Source: Thermodesulfobacteriota bacterium
GTDB taxonomy: Bacteria; Desulfobacterota; Desulfobacteria; Desulfobacterales; SURF-7
Reading direction: 5' to 3'
DNA: 64,000 nt
NCBI GenBank assembly: GCA_049320885.1
Contig: JBMORA010000022.1
Coordinates: 1 to 64,000 of the forward strand
Position 1 is the stretch's first letter. Every line of letters begins with the position of its first letter. Positions 15,001 to 21,000 of the stretch are shown here, piece by piece. The position numbers were made by a program.

Positions 15001-18000
15001 GGCAGCATCGACAAGTTGAGGTGCATGGCCCATTGCCTGGAGCATGTCCTCATGCCGCCCAAGCTTCTCCTGCGGCCCCTGAAATGGGTGATAGCGAAAA
15101 GTTCCGGGCTGACCCGCTTCATGGAAGTATTGACCCTGAATTTCTTTGCCCATTACGGCATCGAATGCACGGCTTGTCTCAAGGCATGTCCGCATTTTCC
15201 GGCCACGCGAAGCTCCGCCGGACCGGTGTCGCTGGGGGAGCCGGCAGTGTAAGACGGGAGCGGGATAATCTCTGGCGCCAGTTCATCGCCATTGACACAT
15301 TCCTATCCGCCGTTTTATGAAAACATCATACATGGTGTGAGAGGTAATTCACGGATTTTCAAAACAACAACTGCAAGGATTTTTACGTGAAACCCAACGC
15401 CTTCTCAAATGAAACGGGGTTTTGGCAATTGTCGAAATCGAAAAGAAAGAAACTTCATTCGGGCCTCCTTTGGATTTGAGGTATTCCCCGGAAGAATTGA
15501 GAGACATAATCCCCATGGCCCCTCTGGGCGCCATCCAGGTGGGCGAGCATTTCTATATGCAACTGTTTCGAAATGCGGACAAATAAGAGGAGAGTCGGCC
15601 GGTGCGCTGTAATTTTGACTGGGGTTTTGGAAGAAACGATGAGGCATGAGGCCGCTAGTTTCGGCAGCAAATCAAAAAAAAGGTAGGCCGGATATAATTG
15701 CGACAATGTGTCAAAAGTGTAGACCTGACCCCAAATAAAAGCGTGAGCCAAGGAGGAAGATGACGACGCTGGTGGCAGGCGCAAGCGGCGCGACCGGACG
15801 GCTGCTGGTGGAAGAGCTGCTTAACCGTGGACAAGATGTCAGGGCGATTGTGCGCTCGCCGGATAAACTGAGCGCGACGCACAGGAATCATGGTCGATTG
15901 TTGTTGATCGAAGCAGGCGTTCTGGAAATCGGCGATGCGGAAATGGCCCGGCATGTCGATGGTTGCGACGCCGTGGCCTCGTGCCTGGGGCATAACCTGA
16001 ACGGGAAGGGCATTTACGGCCAGCCGCGCAGGCTGGTGACCGATGCCGTCCGGCGCTTGTGCCATGCCATCAAGGCCAACAAGCCGGAAAAGCCGGTCAG
16101 GTTCGTCCTCATGAATACGGCGGGCAACAGCAACCGCGACCTCAACGAAACCCCCTCACGGATGGAACGGTGCGCCATGGGGCTGATTCGTCTGCTGCTT
16201 CCGCCCCATGCGGACAATGAACAGGCCGCGGATTATCTGCGGATCGAAATCGGCCGAAACGATGCGGAGATCCAGTGGGCCGTTGTCCGTCCCGATACCT
16301 TGATCGATGAGAACAGGGTCATCGAGTATGAGGTGTATCCCTCGCCCACCAGAAGTGCGCTCTTCAATCCCGGCAGGACCAGCCGAATCAATGTCGGTCG
16401 CTTCATGGCCGATCTGATTACCGACGATGCCGCCTGGAAGCAATGGCAGGGGCGGATGCCCGTGATATACAACAGAGAAATCCGAATTCAAGGAAAGGGG
16501 TAACCGATGAAGCCGATCACCATGATCTATATCCTCAACGCGACTCTCCTGCTTCTTCATGAGATCGAATCGGCATATGAAAAGGAATGGGAAATCCTGA
16601 AGCTGCCGGGCAACATCACCGGCTTTCTTCTCCTCCATATTCCGATTGTTCTGATTCTTTTTTACGGCCTGCTGGAGATCGAGGCGCTTTCCGCCATCGG
16701 ATTATGGCTGGGCATCTTGCTGGGGATCGGCGGGATCATCCCCCTGATCGTGCACAAACTAGTTGTCAAACGGCCCGGCCGGTTCGACCTGGCCATATCG
16801 AATGCCATCATCTATCTCAATAGCATCTGCGGGATTGCGTTGATCGTTTATTCCGTCCGCTATTTCCGTTGATGGCGTCTGTGAAAAGGTCGAGGCGTTT
16901 TAGCGCCAAGTCGTCTTTATTTGACTGTTTATTCTGAAAGATTGTAACCTTTTTAATCGGGCTATCGTCTTACGGGTAAACAATCAAAAAAGGAGAAAAC
17001 ACCATGTCAAACAAGCAAGATATTCAAATCGCTTTAAGCGCTGCCGTTGCAGTCAACTGTATTCCGTGTTTTGAACATATATTTGAAAAAGCCAAAGAAG
17101 TAGGACTTGAAACCGAAGAAATCCAGCATGTCGTTACAATTGCCACCAAGGTCAAAAATGGTGCGCATGTATTTTTAAAAAACAATATTGATGATATGTT
17201 AGGTGTTGAAACAAATGATATCCAGGAAAGCTGTTGCGGTTCTTCAGCCAGAGAGGCGTGTAGTTGCTAAATGAATGATTACTGGGATATTTATGAAATC
17301 TATTGCGAGCGTGTCCGCAGGTTTATAATTTTGACCGTGAAAGATACCTGGGTAGCGGAAGACTTGCTTCAGGAAACATTTATCAGGGTGCAAAAAAATC
17401 TGACCCAGTTAAATGATAGTGGGAAGCTTAAATCCTGGATATTCCGTATTGCGTACAATTTGTGCCAAGACCATTTTAGGCAATCCAAACGAATATCCAA
17501 CCGGGAAGAACCGGTCATGCAAATTGAGATCTTACCTCATTACACTTCAGCTCAGAAAATGCTGGAACAGCAGCAGATGTCAGCGTGCGTCCAAGAGCAG
17601 ACAAAACTGCTGCCTGAATCCCTGCGGACACCCTTGCTCCTTTTCGAGATTTTGGAATTCAAGCAGCAGGAAATTGCCGAAATTTTAAATATCAGTGTTG
17701 AAAACACAAAAGTCCGCTTGCATCGGGCACGCAAGCAGATGAGAGCGATCCTGAATGAAAAATGCCGTTTTGAAAAAGATGAACGAAATGTCCTGGTTTG
17801 TGAACCGCGGCTGAAGAAGTAGTTTATTAACATATTCAAAACCAATTCTCGTTGATGCGGTGTGTTGTGAGTATCCATGTTTGTGGCGGGATTCTGATAC
17901 ATTTAAACAATCTCCATCGAAATCATGGTTATGTCGTCATGATGTAGGTTGTTTCCCGTATATCGAAGCAATGCTTTGAGAACTTCGGATTTGAGCTCAG

Positions 18001-21000
18001 AAAGAGTGGCCTTGGCATTTGCGTCAAGGATATCTTTAAGGCGAGTGAATCCAAAACTTTCACCCGTAGGGTTGGGTGCGTCGATAAGGCCATCACTATA
18101 AACAAAAAGTCGGTCTCCAGCAGCCATCGGAATCGTCAACTGCCCATATCGAGTATCCGAAGAGACAGCAAGGGGTATATTCAAGGGCCGGCCTTCGGCT
18201 TTACCTTTATTACTTGGAGGTTTGGCATAAATCCATGCCTTGTCGGTTACTCGTCGGTATAGAACAGGTGGGTGTCCGGCATAAGAAACCCTCGCTTCAC
18301 TTTCCTGACTGTAATACGCGACAACTGCCGCGGTAGTCATTGCATCCAGGCTCCGGCTGATAATTCGTTGGTTCACTTCACCAAGGATGACTCGACTGTC
18401 CGGCTCTCACATATGAGCTTTCAAAGAGTTGTAGACGTACTGGCTTACTTCCGAGACAGTCTCGCCATGGCCGGTAACATCAGCGATCGCCAGCCGGGTA
18501 ATTATGCCGCCCCTGCATACTCCAAAGAAATAGATATCTCCACCCTTACCTCCCTCACAGGGCGCAGAATAGATAGAACCGATGACCTTCCCGGCAGAGA
18601 CTTCGAGGTCCTGGCTTCGGATGCCTCCCCATAAATCCTTACACTCAAGCCGGCACTGCGAGTTAACAACCTGAAATGGTGATTCTTCTTTGTGCATTGG
18701 CCTTATCCTTTCCTGGAATTGAGACTACAATTGTGAGCTGGTTATCCTGCTCGGTCATCGAAGAGATAACAATTCCGTTTTCAAGCCTCAAATCGCACGG
18801 AAGCGTCTCACCATGTCGTTCAGCTGAGTGGCGAGTTGCATCAGTTCCTTGATGCTGGTGTTCACCTTGGCGCTCCTGTCCGCCATGCTTCCAGCAGCCT
18901 CATTGGCCTTGGAAATATCTTTCGATATCTCTTCGGCGACAAGGGTATTCTGCATCATACTGGTATTGATTTCCGAAATCCCCTGGGTCGCCTGGGTCAC
19001 ACTCCCGGCTATCTCTCGTGTAGTTGCGGACTGCTCCTCCACCGATGAGGAGATGATTACCACGAAATTGTTCAACTCATCGATCACTTCGGAAATTTTG
19101 ACAATTTTGTCCACGGTTTCCGACGTGACATTTTGCATGTCTTTGATCTGCTGTTTTATCTGCTGGGTCGCATTCGAAGTTTGCTTTGCCAATTCCTTGA
19201 TTTCATTGGCTACAACAGAGAATCCCTTCCCCGCCTCCCCTGCCCGGGCCGCCTCAATCGTCGCGTTGAGCGCCAACAAATTCGTTTGTTCAGAAATATC
19301 CTTGATGGTCTCGGTTATCTTGCCAACCTCTATCGCCGTCTCGCCCAGTTTTCGAACCAGTTTGGAGATCGCCTTTGACTGGGAAACGGTATTGAGGGCC
19401 ACCTCCTGGGTACGACTCGTATTTTCGGCGACTTCATGAATCGTGCTGGTCATCTGTTCAACTGACAAGGCTACCATGTTCGCATTATTGGACAACTGCT
19501 CCATGGAGGTCGCTACGGTTTTTGTATTGCCGCTGAACTGTTCGTATGACCTTACAACATTTTTGGAGATGCTTGACATCTCACCGGCTCCACCTGACAT
19601 CTGCTCAGATAGGTCGGATAGCCCAATGGAGGATTGATTTAAAAATTCAGCATTTTTCTGAATCTCCAGAATGGCCTCCTGCAGCTGGGATTTGCTTGCT
19701 GTCAGCTCGACTTCCCGCCTCTTCAACTGTTTTCGAATCCCATTCATGTAAGTGCCGATATAGGTGAGCCAGCCCAAACCCAGGGTACAGATGACCCATT
19801 GCACAATATTCTGGGTAAGATTGAAATTCGGGGGAGGCGACAGGATGTTCAGCAAAATCACTACGCCATAGCCAATCACCGCATTCAGCGATACGAAAAT
19901 AAAACCGAACATGTTGAGTTGAAAAGCACCAAAGAGGATTGTCAACAAGTATAAAACCATGACAGCCCCTCGGATTTCTTGAATAAAATACATGAAATAA
20001 CTGATATAAAAAAGACCCGCGGAAATTTGAAACGCTGTAAGGCTGGGATCCTTGAATCCCCTGTTCATACCGCTCCGGATAATGATAAAAAACAGGGACT
20101 GAACGGAAACAAGAAGCCCGAAGAAAAGAACTCGTTGATGGATTGACATGGCCACCAAGCCTGCCTGCATGGCAACGACGATCACGATGGCGCAAACGCC
20201 AAAAAAGGCATTGGCCATGAACAGGCGCTTGATTCGAAATGCCTGTTTCCTGTCATCTCTTGGAATTATTGAAAACATGATCTCTCCAAATTTCGTCATA
20301 TGATGCCAACCATCGGTTGGAAGAGAACGCTCATGCAAAGGAGAAACGGGTTGACTCCAGAGGAATCGTGCTCTTTTTTTCCGAATTGTTTTACAGAAAC
20401 GATGGTTGAGGTTTTGATCTTCGCAGATGTTATGGGCGCTGTACTATCACGCTGTGATAATTTTTAAAGATTGTATTCGAAAACGATATATTTATCAAGA
20501 ACGGAAAACGCAGGATAGCTTGCCAGAGGGCATACGTCTCCAACCCAACAAAAAGGATGCACAAAGCTTCTGCCATTCCGCACGTTACCAGCCCGGTAAT
20601 TCCGTTCGAGGGGATGGGCAGAAATAGCCAAGTTCATTCGCGGTTTTCAGGCGTCATCAGGAAGGGACGATGGTACTGTTGTCCGCCTTGACGTAAGTGC
20701 TGGAGTTGAGGGGGTGCCTGCCTTCAATGCCGCTATAGAAATCACGGATGGTCGCCATATCCGACTCAATGTCTCCCGTGGGTATGACTGCGGGGCCGAT
20801 TCCCCCGGTCTTCCTGCCATAGTCCAGGTAACCCAGCACGATGGGAACACCGGCCCCATTGGCAATGTGATAAAATCCGGTTTTCCAGTACATGACCCTG
20901 CGGCGGGTCCCCGACGGGGGAATGATCATGACCAGTTCATCCGTTTCCTGAAATTTGCTGATGGACTGGGTCACCACGTTGTTCGATTTTGAACGGTCGA

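Follow-up and report, generated by a model that had tools for sequence, protein, structure and literature searches.

A conserved in-frame UGA, probably read as selenocysteine, in a stand-alone PP2C/SpoIIE-type phosphatase

Results

A phosphatase gene with a single in-frame UGA

In the window analysed (a 64,000-nucleotide stretch of contig JBMORA010000022.1 from a Thermodesulfobacteriota bacterium of the Desulfobacterales), a gene for a stand-alone PP2C/SpoIIE-type phosphatase contains one internal UGA, at codon 97. On the strength of sequence comparisons, this codon is most likely decoded as selenocysteine (Sec), which would yield one full-length phosphatase of 264 residues; we put the probability of this reading at about 0.8. 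The gene occupies 17903..18697 of the minus strand, with its 264 codons at 17906-18697 and the terminal TAA at 17905-17903. The UGA lies at 18407..18409 (minus), in the context ...SLKAHM-TGA-EPDSRVILGEVN..., and its bases were identical in contigs from two other runs (X2 and X3). The note from the genome-wide survey had described a 264-codon gene with a sole TGA at codon 97 and a Pfam SpoIIE match over aa 67-262; retranslation of 17906-18697 (minus) returned the same gene, and the repeated profile search returned the same E-value (3.3e-29) and range, with a score of 102.6 bits where 25 is the cut-off. Under translation table 11 the gene is broken into a 96-aa ORF (18407-18697) and a 157-aa ORF starting with GTG (17903-18376). 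That note had also stated that the part behind the UGA was left uncalled, which is not true of every gene call, as the protein database holds the C-terminal piece as a 161-aa protein (P0009). Judged from conservation and secondary structure, the N-terminal 96 codons (18410..18697, minus) encode beta strands with GGD54 and D73-VTGHG followed by switch helix alpha1 (aa 79-94), and the C-terminal 167 codons (17906..18406, minus) encode switch helix alpha2 (aa 102-114) and the remaining PP2C core with D202-G and D254-D255.

The conservation of the UGA was assessed in 401 genomes of the order, the present genome (G000) included, at E<=1e-30. Sixteen genomes matched, representing six families besides that of G000. 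Exactly one TGA was present in 16 of the 18 match rows; the other two rows were C-terminal pieces ending short of codon 97. These results agree with an earlier count of 15 genes in 14 other genomes, with the qualification that the copy in G224 is also frameshifted and that G255 retains a C-terminal remnant only. As previously reported, no match was found in the two genomes of the same genus (G111 and G197). When the comparison was widened, TGA occupied the codon-97 column in all 36 GTDB loci with at least 55% identity, as it did in 71 of the 75 metagenome loci that cover the site; the same single TGA, without any other stop, recurs in more than 100 independent contigs whose proteins are 55-78% identical. 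Moreover, both flanks are conserved in frame across orthologues (mean column identity of the C-terminal part, 83%), and codons 100-102 (D-S-R), right behind the TGA, are invariant among 15 orthologues. The in-frame UGA is thus conserved at one column with coding conservation on both sides, the pattern of a selenoprotein gene.

The UGA-containing forms are nested among Cys homologues

A protein-database search (best 120 of 5.8 billion proteins, 90% clustering) yielded 59 full-length matches covering the codon-97 site. Among these, the aligned residue was Cys in 50 and Asn in seven, with one Arg and one Trp; the Trp entry is a UGA that had been translated as W. The three nearest TGA-less GTDB loci (L060, L064, and L065; 52-55% identity) all carry a Cys codon, TGT or TGC, at this column, and metagenome loci L160 and L163 carry TGC. 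In a tree of 104 rows comprising Sec, Cys, and Asn forms, the Cys and Sec forms together made up a clade with SH-aLRT support of 100, with the Asn forms outside. Within this clade, 36 Sec rows and one long-branch Cys row (P0014) formed a single group (support, 91) nested in paraphyletic Cys forms; P0014 is the only instance of a change from TGA to a Cys codon inside the TGA group. An earlier worry had been that Sec would here replace Asn or Asp. Because the TGA forms are nested in the Cys clade and the Asn forms lie outside it, and because the closest TGA-less homologues mostly have Cys, that picture was wrong, and the family is better described as a Cys-to-Sec family. The family thus displays the homologue pairs that are the classical Sec/Cys signature of selenoproteins. 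The tree indicates that it derived from Cys-containing homologues and that one lineage, mostly labelled Desulfobacterales, swapped Cys for the proposed Sec.

Residue 97 is predicted to lie in the switch region of a PP2C fold

An AlphaFold model of the phosphatase (pLDDT 86.2) adopted a PP2C fold, with RsbX (7.9e-14), Rv1364c, SiaA, and SpoIIE as the best structure matches. Across 37 sequences, D54, D73, D202, D254, and D255 do not vary; G76, H77, and G78 are invariant too, and the metal-binding Asp residues fall on both sides of codon 97; D73 aligns with SpoIIE D628. The conserved GGD, DxxGHG, DG, and DD motifs are shared with the SpoIIE-type PP2C family. The profile match, the modelled fold, and the metal-binding acidic residues place the protein in the SpoIIE/RsbU branch as a predicted Ser/Thr phosphatase. 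In the model, a loop (aa 95-101) joins helices alpha1 and alpha2, and residue 97 sits in the turn between these two PP2C switch helices. Profile alignment to SpoIIE chains places residue 97 opposite E652, just past K649/I650. In SpoIIE, K649 and I650 project across the dimer interface, and the switch helices rotate upon dimerisation, which positions the M2 manganese ligand (Bradshaw 2017, PMC5468089). Like the SpoIIE/RsbU/RsbX/SiaA/Rv1364c family, the present protein has the Pfam SpoIIE domain, a PP2C fold, and two helices after DxxGHG; unlike that family, it stands alone at 264 aa, has no regulatory domain, and carries Sec or Cys at the switch turn. No STAS or kinase partner was found in the neighbourhood of the gene. 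The alignment was also searched for a clade-specific resolving Cys and none was identified, since C19 and C61 are conserved in the Asn forms too.

A conserved non-canonical RNA fold follows the UGA

Under the bSECISearch rule, a stable hairpin follows soon after the UGA and presents a G in its apical loop 16-37 nt downstream. No such canonical bacterial SECIS was found behind the phosphatase UGA, nor did an Rfam search give a match. The fdhA genes of G000 have a strong local hairpin just past the UGA (about +14 to +33), and 45-nt folds after the UGA reached -15.5 to -18.8 kcal/mol for fdhA, -10.1 for selD, and -7.4 for the phosphatase. The caveat of the survey about the missing textbook SECIS stands; what was found instead is a non-canonical fold linked to the TGA forms. 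According to BSepDB, 12.6% of known entries likewise have no canonical SECIS.

The fold, derived by alifold, begins with a long-range hairpin of 61 nt (+14 to +74 from the U of the UGA; 18336..18396, minus), composed of helix 1 (14-17/71-74) and helix 2 (22-23 and 25-30/59-66). It is followed by a tetraloop hairpin, CGCGGC-AGUU-GUCGCG (+78 to +93; 18317..18332, minus), which at 75 nt from the UGA is far beyond the usual SECIS distance. Over the whole consensus fold (+14 to +93, hairpin 3 included), 97.8% of cells were paired, compared with 29-54% in slid controls, the consensus having been derived from the same alignment that was used to score its pairing. The AGUU hairpin was 97.1% paired, with pair 78/93 being CG in 26 sequences, AU in three, GU in one, and unpaired in five. 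Most single-sequence folds showed the same +14 to +74 architecture. Codon usage was nearly fixed in both elements: Ser101 is AGT in 36/36 sequences and Asp118 is GAT in 34/34 in the long-range hairpin, and in the AGUU hairpin the synonymous codons GCG (36/36), GCA (34/35), and GTT (35/35) hardly vary. In the Cys forms, 3-4 of the 6 pairs of the AGUU hairpin hold, though L064 encodes the same peptide (TTAAVVAY); over the entire fold, 10-13 of the 18 pairs survive in the Cys forms, compared with 15-17 in those TGA forms that diverge most among the genome loci retrieved. Consistent with these findings, the lowest synonymous divergence of the gene was in 31-codon windows starting at codons 95-101 (0.285-0.30, compared with 0.40 gene-wide; codon permutation p=0.0014). 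Both-sided changes occurred in only 3 of the 18 pairs; the case for the fold comes chiefly from pairs that do not vary. Folding energies of 11 TGA forms were no better than those of shuffles (z +0.76 to -2.46), and an apical stem at 34-38/47-51 found no support when tested. These combined sequence data point to an RNA-level constraint after the UGA that is tied to the TGA forms, visible as a conserved fold with little covariation.

Selenocysteine machinery and other readings of the UGA

As the survey had claimed, the Sec machinery of G000 is complete: selC was located on contig C12, selA (599.9 bits) and a canonical SelB (371.7 bits) were recovered, and selD, which has a UGA of its own, is accompanied by three fdhA genes with a UGA. 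A canonical SelB-type match was present in 12 of the 15 other carrier genomes, and the three in which the search found none are MAGs of 82-88% completeness. Five further carriers, whose copy of the gene is part of a whole chromosome or of a contig of at least 39 kb, each have exactly one SelB. Among five carrier MAGs with non-Desulfobacterales labels, SelB was found in two and not in three; the phosphatase contigs of these MAGs are 3.4-10.7 kb long and possibly misbinned. SelB was present in one of three Cys-form genomes. The UGA would be decoded by the ordinary SelA/SelB/tRNA-Sec/SelD system, and we infer that decoding may be helped by the conserved RNA fold, that is, by the 61-nt hairpin and then the tight AGUU-tetraloop hairpin.

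Were the UGA instead a true conserved stop, the gene would specify a 96-residue fragment, with or without a separately started C-terminal fragment, or an attenuator, and the product would be a split or regulated PP2C. Such an arrangement would fit the general splitting of the gene by gene callers, with C-terminal pieces of 145-214 aa making up 61 of the 120 best database matches, the invariant Met120 (ATG), and the lack of a canonical SECIS among the folds searched. However, no restart is conserved: codon 108 is GTG in 6/34 sequences and GTT in 27/34, and the called fragments start at many places. A start at Met120 would remove switch helix alpha2, and Met120 is also conserved in the uninterrupted Cys forms, which argues for a constraint at the protein level. 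Moreover, the stop would separate metal-binding Asp residues lying on either side of it, the invariant D-S-R codons precede any candidate start, and the TGA forms are nested among uninterrupted homologues with Cys at exactly this position. We therefore regard a true stop as unlikely.

Slightly less probable still is readthrough of the UGA without Sec, either as Cys by a selC* tRNA with a UCA anticodon and SelB*, or by a near-cognate tRNA (Trp, Cys, or Arg) aided by the downstream fold. G000 does contain a selC*-type tRNA (A1:U72, U73, 8/4 shape, UCA anticodon) immediately upstream of another SelB gene, whose product (SelB*) shares 32% identity with the canonical SelB, an arrangement reported by Mukai et al. 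2017 (PMC5389517). This UGA-to-Cys system occurs in Desulfobacterales and Syntrophobacterales (PMC5389517; review, PMC7609411), and the pair in G000 would read UGA. Cys is functional at this column in homologues, and the fold behind the UGA is not a canonical SECIS. However, the system does not co-occur with the phosphatase: the search of the 15 other carriers gave no SelB*-type match, while about 44 non-carrier genomes have one. The single SelB match in each of 12 of these carriers (E 1e-87 to 1e-104) resembles the canonical SelB of G000 (1.2e-102 with the same query), and the five further carriers have no second SelB. Cys insertion through selC*/SelB*, which had been held open earlier, is thus rejected as a general explanation. 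In addition, plain Cys could be reached by a one-base change to TGY without costly recoding, a step seen only once in the TGA group (P0014). Finally, a pseudogene or a sequencing or assembly error, suggested by the two decayed relatives (G224 and G255) and the missing gene in the same-genus genomes, is effectively refuted by the same lone TGA across GTDB and metagenome loci, by strong protein-level conservation on either side of it, and by the unchanged codon in two other runs. Taken together with the Cys homologues, the nested TGA group, and the machinery, these data leave the selenocysteine reading stronger than when it was proposed.

Genomic neighbourhood

Neighbours were counted at 39 loci, many of them on short contigs. 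Convergent with the phosphatase is a gene for an ECF-type sigma factor (17271..17822, plus; Sigma70_r2 3.7e-13, Sigma70_r4_2 8.2e-13), a family that adjoins the phosphatase in 10/39 loci. Directly upstream of the sigma gene, a small AhpD/CMD-like protein is encoded (17004..17270, plus; Pfam CMD 2.9e-4) with an invariant NCIPC (CxxC) and a Cys-rich tail; its orthologue at L048 matched Pfam CMD at 3e-5, and CIPC is invariant in the alignment. The CMD CxxC protein adjoins the phosphatase in 9/39 loci, and a Cys-rich protein of 174-191 aa does so in 14/39. One homologue, P0029, is a CMD-SpoIIE (CMD-PP2C) fusion. Upstream on the same strand, a methyl-accepting chemotaxis protein gene (18788..20338, minus; MCPsignal 9.1e-30) was not recurrent across the other loci.

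Discussion

The phosphatase resembles selenoproteins with Sec/Cys pairs, such as SelD and FdhA of G000, in its conserved UGA, in the Cys of its close homologues, and in a host with selA, selB, selC, and selD. It differs from them in being a metal-dependent signalling enzyme, not an oxidoreductase, in that no proximal G-loop SECIS hairpin was found, and in that, by model and alignment, the proposed Sec would be distant from the catalytic metals, within a regulatory loop. Zhang and Gladyshev 2008 (PMC2398784) describe a subgroup of "distant PP2C-type phosphatase" fused to Prx, and propose a redox role for a conserved Cys specific to that subgroup. There, too, a PP2C domain is coupled to a thiol/selenol redox protein, but Sec is in the peroxiredoxin domain, whereas here it is proposed for the phosphatase itself. 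No Prx fusion turned up here: the matches listed include only the CMD fusion, and proteins with lengths of 463-2000 aa gave none.

If Sec is inserted, its position and the neighbourhood give roughly an even chance that the selenol is a redox sensor controlling the phosphatase. The selenol at residue 97 would be oxidised reversibly, pairing either with its counterpart across a dimer or with the thiol of a partner, for instance the AhpD-like CxxC protein encoded nearby or fused; its oxidation state would fix or release the switch, turning the phosphatase on or off, and the state of the phosphatase would feed into the regulon of the neighbouring ECF sigma factor. A fuller scheme is only tentative: a Sec at the tip of the allosteric switch would use its selenol to sense redox state (or selenium supply), and by AhpD-like CxxC exchange or a dimer diselenide would gate manganese binding and control an ECF-sigma regulon, and its UGA would be read by way of a new SECIS architecture in which the 61-nt spacer hairpin brings the distal AGUU hairpin to the ribosome. 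In such an architecture, the effective spacing would be about 13 unpaired nt, not 75.

The survey had placed the family outside current catalogues. This holds for NCBIfam, which has no model for it, and for the selenoprotein reviews and database paper searched, which do not mention it; the BSepDB family list and Haft & Tolstoy 2025 lie outside this comparison. If the selenocysteine reading is correct, the phosphatase would represent a selenoprotein family absent from the catalogues searched, with Sec in the regulatory switch of a signalling phosphatase.

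Results

An in-frame UGA in a PP2C/SpoIIE-type phosphatase gene

The genome-wide survey's note had described a single 264-codon PP2C/SpoIIE gene carrying one TGA at codon 97, and this was confirmed by translation and by Pfam analysis. On the minus strand (window positions 18697-17906), 264 codons were read with one internal stop, a TGA at codon 97 (18409-18407; context SLKAHM-TGA-EPDSRVILGEVN), and the frame terminates at a TAA (17905-17903). Residues 67-262, which span the internal stop, match Pfam SpoIIE at 3.3e-29; when translated under table 11, the gene is divided into a 96-aa ORF and a 157-aa ORF that starts at GTG. 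NCBIfam contained no model for this phosphatase, the sole match being a weak, partial one to SiaA. A 116-aa ORF (17552-17902, minus strand), with an ATG start that overlaps the stop of the phosphatase gene (TAAATG), was considered as a coupled downstream gene and rejected; it is antisense to an ECF sigma factor gene, has no Pfam or family match, and is probably spurious.

An AlphaFold model generated from a 37-sequence alignment predicted a PP2C fold with confidence (pLDDT 86.2, pTM 0.85). The top structural matches in the PDB were RsbX, the RsbU domain of Rv1364c, SiaA, and SpoIIE (E 8e-14 to 5e-13). When the PDB was searched by sequence, one family alignment (A1) returned only the C-terminal part of SiaA, and another (A3) gave usable alignments. 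Because D54, D73, D202, D254, and D255 are invariant in 37/37 sequences and the predicted fold is that of a PP2C, the enzyme looks catalytically competent as far as its sequence indicates.

Conservation of the UGA

When 401 genomes of the order were searched, a match at E≤1e-30 was found in 16, including the source genome. Exactly one TGA was present in 16 of the 18 match rows; the remaining two were C-terminal pieces ending short of codon 97, one from genome G255 and the other being the latter half of the frameshifted copy of genome G224. A GTDB scan with one genome per species returned 61 loci, 36 of which (the frameshifted G224 copy among them) had TGA at the codon-97 column, all at 55-75% protein identity. 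In a metagenome scan, 75 of 80 loci covered the site, with TGA in 71, TGC in 2, and CAG or GGT in 2 distant loci (41-42% identity). Codon 97 was also unchanged in contigs of two further sequencing runs, both from one other study. Because the TGA is kept across the genomes of the order, the GTDB and metagenome loci, and these additional runs, we conclude that it is genuine and under selection.

Two decayed copies and one intact copy (G345) of the gene were observed in genus g17. The G224 copy (loci L015, L018, and L066) keeps the UGA and carries a frameshift near codon 152; the G255 copy (L016) is a C-terminal remnant of residues 139-263 only. Five TGA-form genes (L030, L043, L045, L057, and L063) were located on contigs of 3.4-10.7 kb, from MAGs labeled Gammaproteobacteria, Arenicellales, Pseudomonadota, or Desulfofustis. 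The near identity of L057 to L058, which is from a closed 'Deltaproteobacteria' chromosome, suggests that contaminated bins, not a wide host range, account for some of these labels.

Cysteine homologues of the TGA forms

The Sec/Cys pair was the chief new result of this follow-up. The three nearest TGA-less GTDB loci (L060, L064, and L065; 52-55% identity), with MAG labels of Phycisphaerae, Actinomycetes, and Alphaproteobacteria, had TGT or TGC at the codon-97 column. A collection of 5.8 billion proteins, clustered at 90% identity, was then used for a protein search, and the best 120 matches were analyzed. Among these, 59 covered the site, with Cys in 50, Asn in 7, Arg in 1, and Trp in 1; the 50 Cys matches (44-63% identity) had the motif H-[MIV]-C-D-x-D-S. 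The other 61 were C-terminal fragments (145-214 aa, 66-83% identity), representing truncated calls of TGA forms. In the Trp match (P0002; 250 aa, 73% identity), the UGA was translated as W, apparently by a gene caller with a TGA=W code, and records of this kind could distort residue counts at this column.

In a tree of 104 proteins, obtained by a quick search with no bootstrap, the Cys and Sec forms constituted one clade (SH-aLRT 100), and the Asn forms fell outside it. Within this clade, 36 Sec rows and one long-branch Cys row (P0014) made up one group (support 91) nested in paraphyletic Cys forms. The picture, as drawn from these sequences, is a change from Asn to Cys to Sec with at most one reversion, which is also how known selenoprotein families appear. 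The earlier concern that Sec would stand in place of Asn or Asp was thus not borne out, given that Cys was present in 50/59 site-covering matches and that the Sec group is nested in Cys forms. The residue count behind that concern (N 79, C 2) was obtained with a library in which sequences are clustered at 50% identity, and there we would expect the Cys clade to be reduced to a few representatives.

Selenocysteine machinery and a possible Cys-inserting system

The source genome contains selA (599.9 bits), a canonical selB (371.7 bits), a canonical tRNA-Sec (98 nt, G73), a selD with its own UGA, and three fdhA genes with one UGA each. Outside the window, at contig C1:315730-317769 (loci L020 and L023), it also contains a selC*-type tRNA (UCA anticodon, A1:U72, U73, 8/4 shape), which lies immediately 5' of the gene for a second SelB (SelB*), itself 32% identical to the canonical SelB. 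This layout is the same as one described in the available text of Mukai et al. (PMC5389517), where a selC* tRNA upstream of SelB* was proposed to insert Cys at UGA. Genes for a double-cubane-cluster reductase, a NifS-type desulfurase (opposite strand), and a rhodanese lie 3' of SelB*, and no cysS* is adjacent to selC*/selB*. A second cysteinyl-tRNA synthetase of 759 aa is encoded about 75 kb away (C1 ~237844-240123; L025:592-2871); its anticodon-binding domain is kept, its N terminus is fused to a PLP-dependent domain (PALP, cysteine-synthase-like), and it could be the charger of the A1:U72 tRNA.

Cys insertion through this pair had been raised by the survey's note as an alternative explanation of codon 97. 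When the SelB* protein was used as the query against the same 401 genomes, a SelB*-type match was found in about 44 other genomes and in 0/15 of the other phosphatase-gene carriers; because of this lack of co-occurrence, Cys insertion was rejected as a general explanation. In 12 of these 15 carriers there was a single match, at 1e-87 to 1e-104 (the canonical SelB of the source genome gave 1.2e-102 with the same query), and the 3 carriers with no SelB match were incomplete MAGs (82-88% complete). Five further carriers, having the gene on a whole chromosome or on a contig of at least 39 kb, possessed exactly one SelB each above the family cut-off. SelB was not found in 3/5 carrier MAGs with non-Desulfobacterales labels, whose contigs (3.4-10.7 kb) may be misbinned. 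Of three Cys-form genomes, one had a SelB above the cut-off and two had none. In the closed carrier genome G409, the single selB ends about 100 nt before locus L047 (chromosome ~197195-202988), which encodes a SHOCT protein, the CMD protein, an ECF sigma factor, and the UGA-containing phosphatase; the distance of about 3 kb between selB and the phosphatase gene may be a coincidence.

RNA downstream of the UGA

The recoding signal is the weak point of the selenocysteine reading. In fdhA and selD of the source genome, textbook hairpins with G-rich loops are present just past the UGA (in fdhA at roughly +14 to +33). When 45 nt were folded, the energies were -15.5 to -18.8 kcal/mol for fdhA and -10.1 kcal/mol for selD, compared with only -7.4 kcal/mol for the phosphatase gene, in agreement with the earlier observation that no textbook SECIS directly follows this UGA. 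No conserved proximal hairpin was detected after the phosphatase UGA; a short candidate right after it (CCGG-ACAG-UCGG or GAC-AGUCGR-GUC) was rejected, being lost, by eye, in forms with Thr at codon 103. An Rfam scan of window positions 17500-19000 at E≤10 yielded two chance-level matches only.

The DNA 3' of the UGA is unusually conserved at synonymous sites. The synonymous codons fixed in TGA forms were AGT for Ser101 (36/36), GAT for Asp118 (34/34), GCG for Ala123 (36/36), GCA for Ala124 (34/35), and GTT for Val125 (35/35); codons immediately 5' of the UGA showed free synonymous variation. Among 31-codon windows, the seven lowest in synonymous divergence started at codons 95-101 (0.285-0.305 versus 0.40 gene-wide; codon permutation test, p=0.0014).

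RNAalifold analysis of 36 TGA forms gave a hairpin of 61 nt, with helix 1 at 14-17/71-74 and helix 2 at 22-23 and 25-30/59-66 (positions counted from the U of UGA); the tetraloop hairpin CGCGGC-AGUU-GUCGCG comes next, at 78-93. In a 35-sequence alignment, 97.8% of cells were paired, compared with 29-54% when the partners were slid, and the observed values were reached by 0-5 of 500 shuffles, the fold having been derived from the same alignment on which pairs were counted. Changes on both sides occurred in only 3 pairs, in keeping with the weak covariation noted before. Single-sequence folding produced the same architecture in most of 11 TGA forms and in 0/3 Cys forms. Moreover, Cys forms retained 10-13 of 18 pairs, whereas similarly divergent TGA forms (L057, L059, and L062) retained 15-17; in the Cys form L064, the peptide over the tetraloop hairpin (TTAAVVAY) is identical, yet the pairs are kept only in part. 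Folding energy was no better than that of shuffles (z +0.76 to -2.46). An apical stem in the long hairpin (34-38/47-51; 84.6% paired versus 83.4% in shuffles, with 71/500 shuffles as high) was not supported, and an alternative register (13-17/71-75, 21-25/63-67; 93.9% paired) brought no gain over the alifold register. The geometry of the +14 to +93 fold differs from that of known bacterial SECIS elements; the BSepDB paper reports that 12.6% of 57,630 entries are without a canonical SECIS. The limitations of this fold are serious, and we regard it as a UGA-linked RNA element that would take part in SelB recruitment, with an even chance that it serves as the recoding signal.

Position of residue 97

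In the model, loop 95-101 lies between helix alpha1 (79-94) and helix alpha2 (102-114). According to the available text on SpoIIE (PMC5468089), alpha1 and alpha2 (residues 630-678) are 'switch helices' that rotate on dimerization, whereby G629, beside D628, is placed to bind the M2 manganese, and K649 and I650 reach across the dimer interface. In a profile alignment to SpoIIE chains, D73 coincided with D628, and the Sec column fell at E652 (numbering inferred from the D628 anchor). From the modeled loop and this alignment, Sec is predicted to occupy the tip of this regulatory switch, remote from the metals. Conservation of C19 and C61 extends to the Asn forms.

Genes near the phosphatase

In the window, the phosphatase gene is convergent with an operon comprising genes for a CMD/AhpD-like small protein with an invariant NCIPC motif (17004-17270) and an ECF sigma factor (17271-17822). 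Just beyond this pair, on the plus strand, are genes for a DUF6713 protein (16507-16872) and an NAD(P)H-binding (NmrA/epimerase-like) protein (15760-16503), neither of which is among the recurrent neighbor families. Across 39 loci, the recurring neighbors were a Cys-rich 174-191-aa protein with no Pfam family (14 loci), a DUF1295-like membrane protein (11), ECF sigma (10), the CMD protein (9), a DGC-domain protein (6), and a SHOCT protein (4); because many contigs are short, these counts are lower bounds. An atlas look-up of the Cys-rich neighbor returned unnamed clusters only. The order CMD-sigma-phosphatase on one strand was seen in 4 loci. The recurring neighbors were present at the Cys-form loci L060, L064, and L065 as well, and in one Cys form (P0029, 350 aa), which has a CQPC motif, CMD and SpoIIE domains are fused. 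A search for still longer fusions (463-2000 aa) returned nothing at E≤1e-15, a weak negative, and no STAS, anti-sigma kinase, or Ser/Thr kinase genes were seen near the phosphatase loci.

Discussion

The data comprise a conserved UGA, a Sec/Cys pair, the host machinery, an intact PP2C domain, a switch-loop position, and a redox-flavored neighborhood. We consider it well supported that Sec is inserted at codon 97 by SelB, with a probability of about 0.8. Given Sec, the selenol at residue 97 would be oxidized, either across the dimer or with a CxxC partner, and its oxidation state would set the switch helices and, through them, Mn binding and phosphatase activity; we hold the odds of such a redox switch to be balanced. 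In a variant, UGA decoding may tie phosphatase synthesis to selenium supply. Output of the phosphatase to the ECF sigma regulon is a more doubtful proposal.

A full-text literature search for selenoproteins and PP2C-type phosphatases retrieved Zhang & Gladyshev 2008 (PMC2398784) as the sole relevant paper. In the available portion of that work, Sec peroxiredoxins have as their fusion partner a distant PP2C subgroup in which a Cys is conserved; the Sec of those proteins belongs to the Prx domain, whereas here it would be in the phosphatase itself. The word 'phosphatase' was absent from the main texts of the 2022 and 2026 reviews, the BSepDB paper, Haft's 2022 preprint, and the Olavius, Sargasso, 2006, and 2016 surveys. 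Judged on these main texts and the literature search, the family is undescribed in print, and within those limits the survey's claim of a family new to catalogues stands. On the selenocysteine reading, this is a new selenoprotein family with an unusual functional class and an unexplained recoding signal.

Given that the TGA-form gene is misannotated everywhere in public gene calls as two pieces named RsbU/PP2C, annotation pipelines need a dedicated model. Because it is without a canonical SECIS yet has a conserved long-range fold, the gene also lends itself to testing how recoding works in the minority of selenoprotein genes (12.6% in BSepDB) whose signal is not understood. In reviews, prokaryotic selenoproteins are chiefly assigned to anaerobic respiration, metabolism, and redox balance. 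If a signaling phosphatase that depends on Mn carries Sec in its allosteric switch, selenium biology would reach into bacterial signal transduction, and this family, if the reading is true, would provide a natural, testable example of PP2C redox control.
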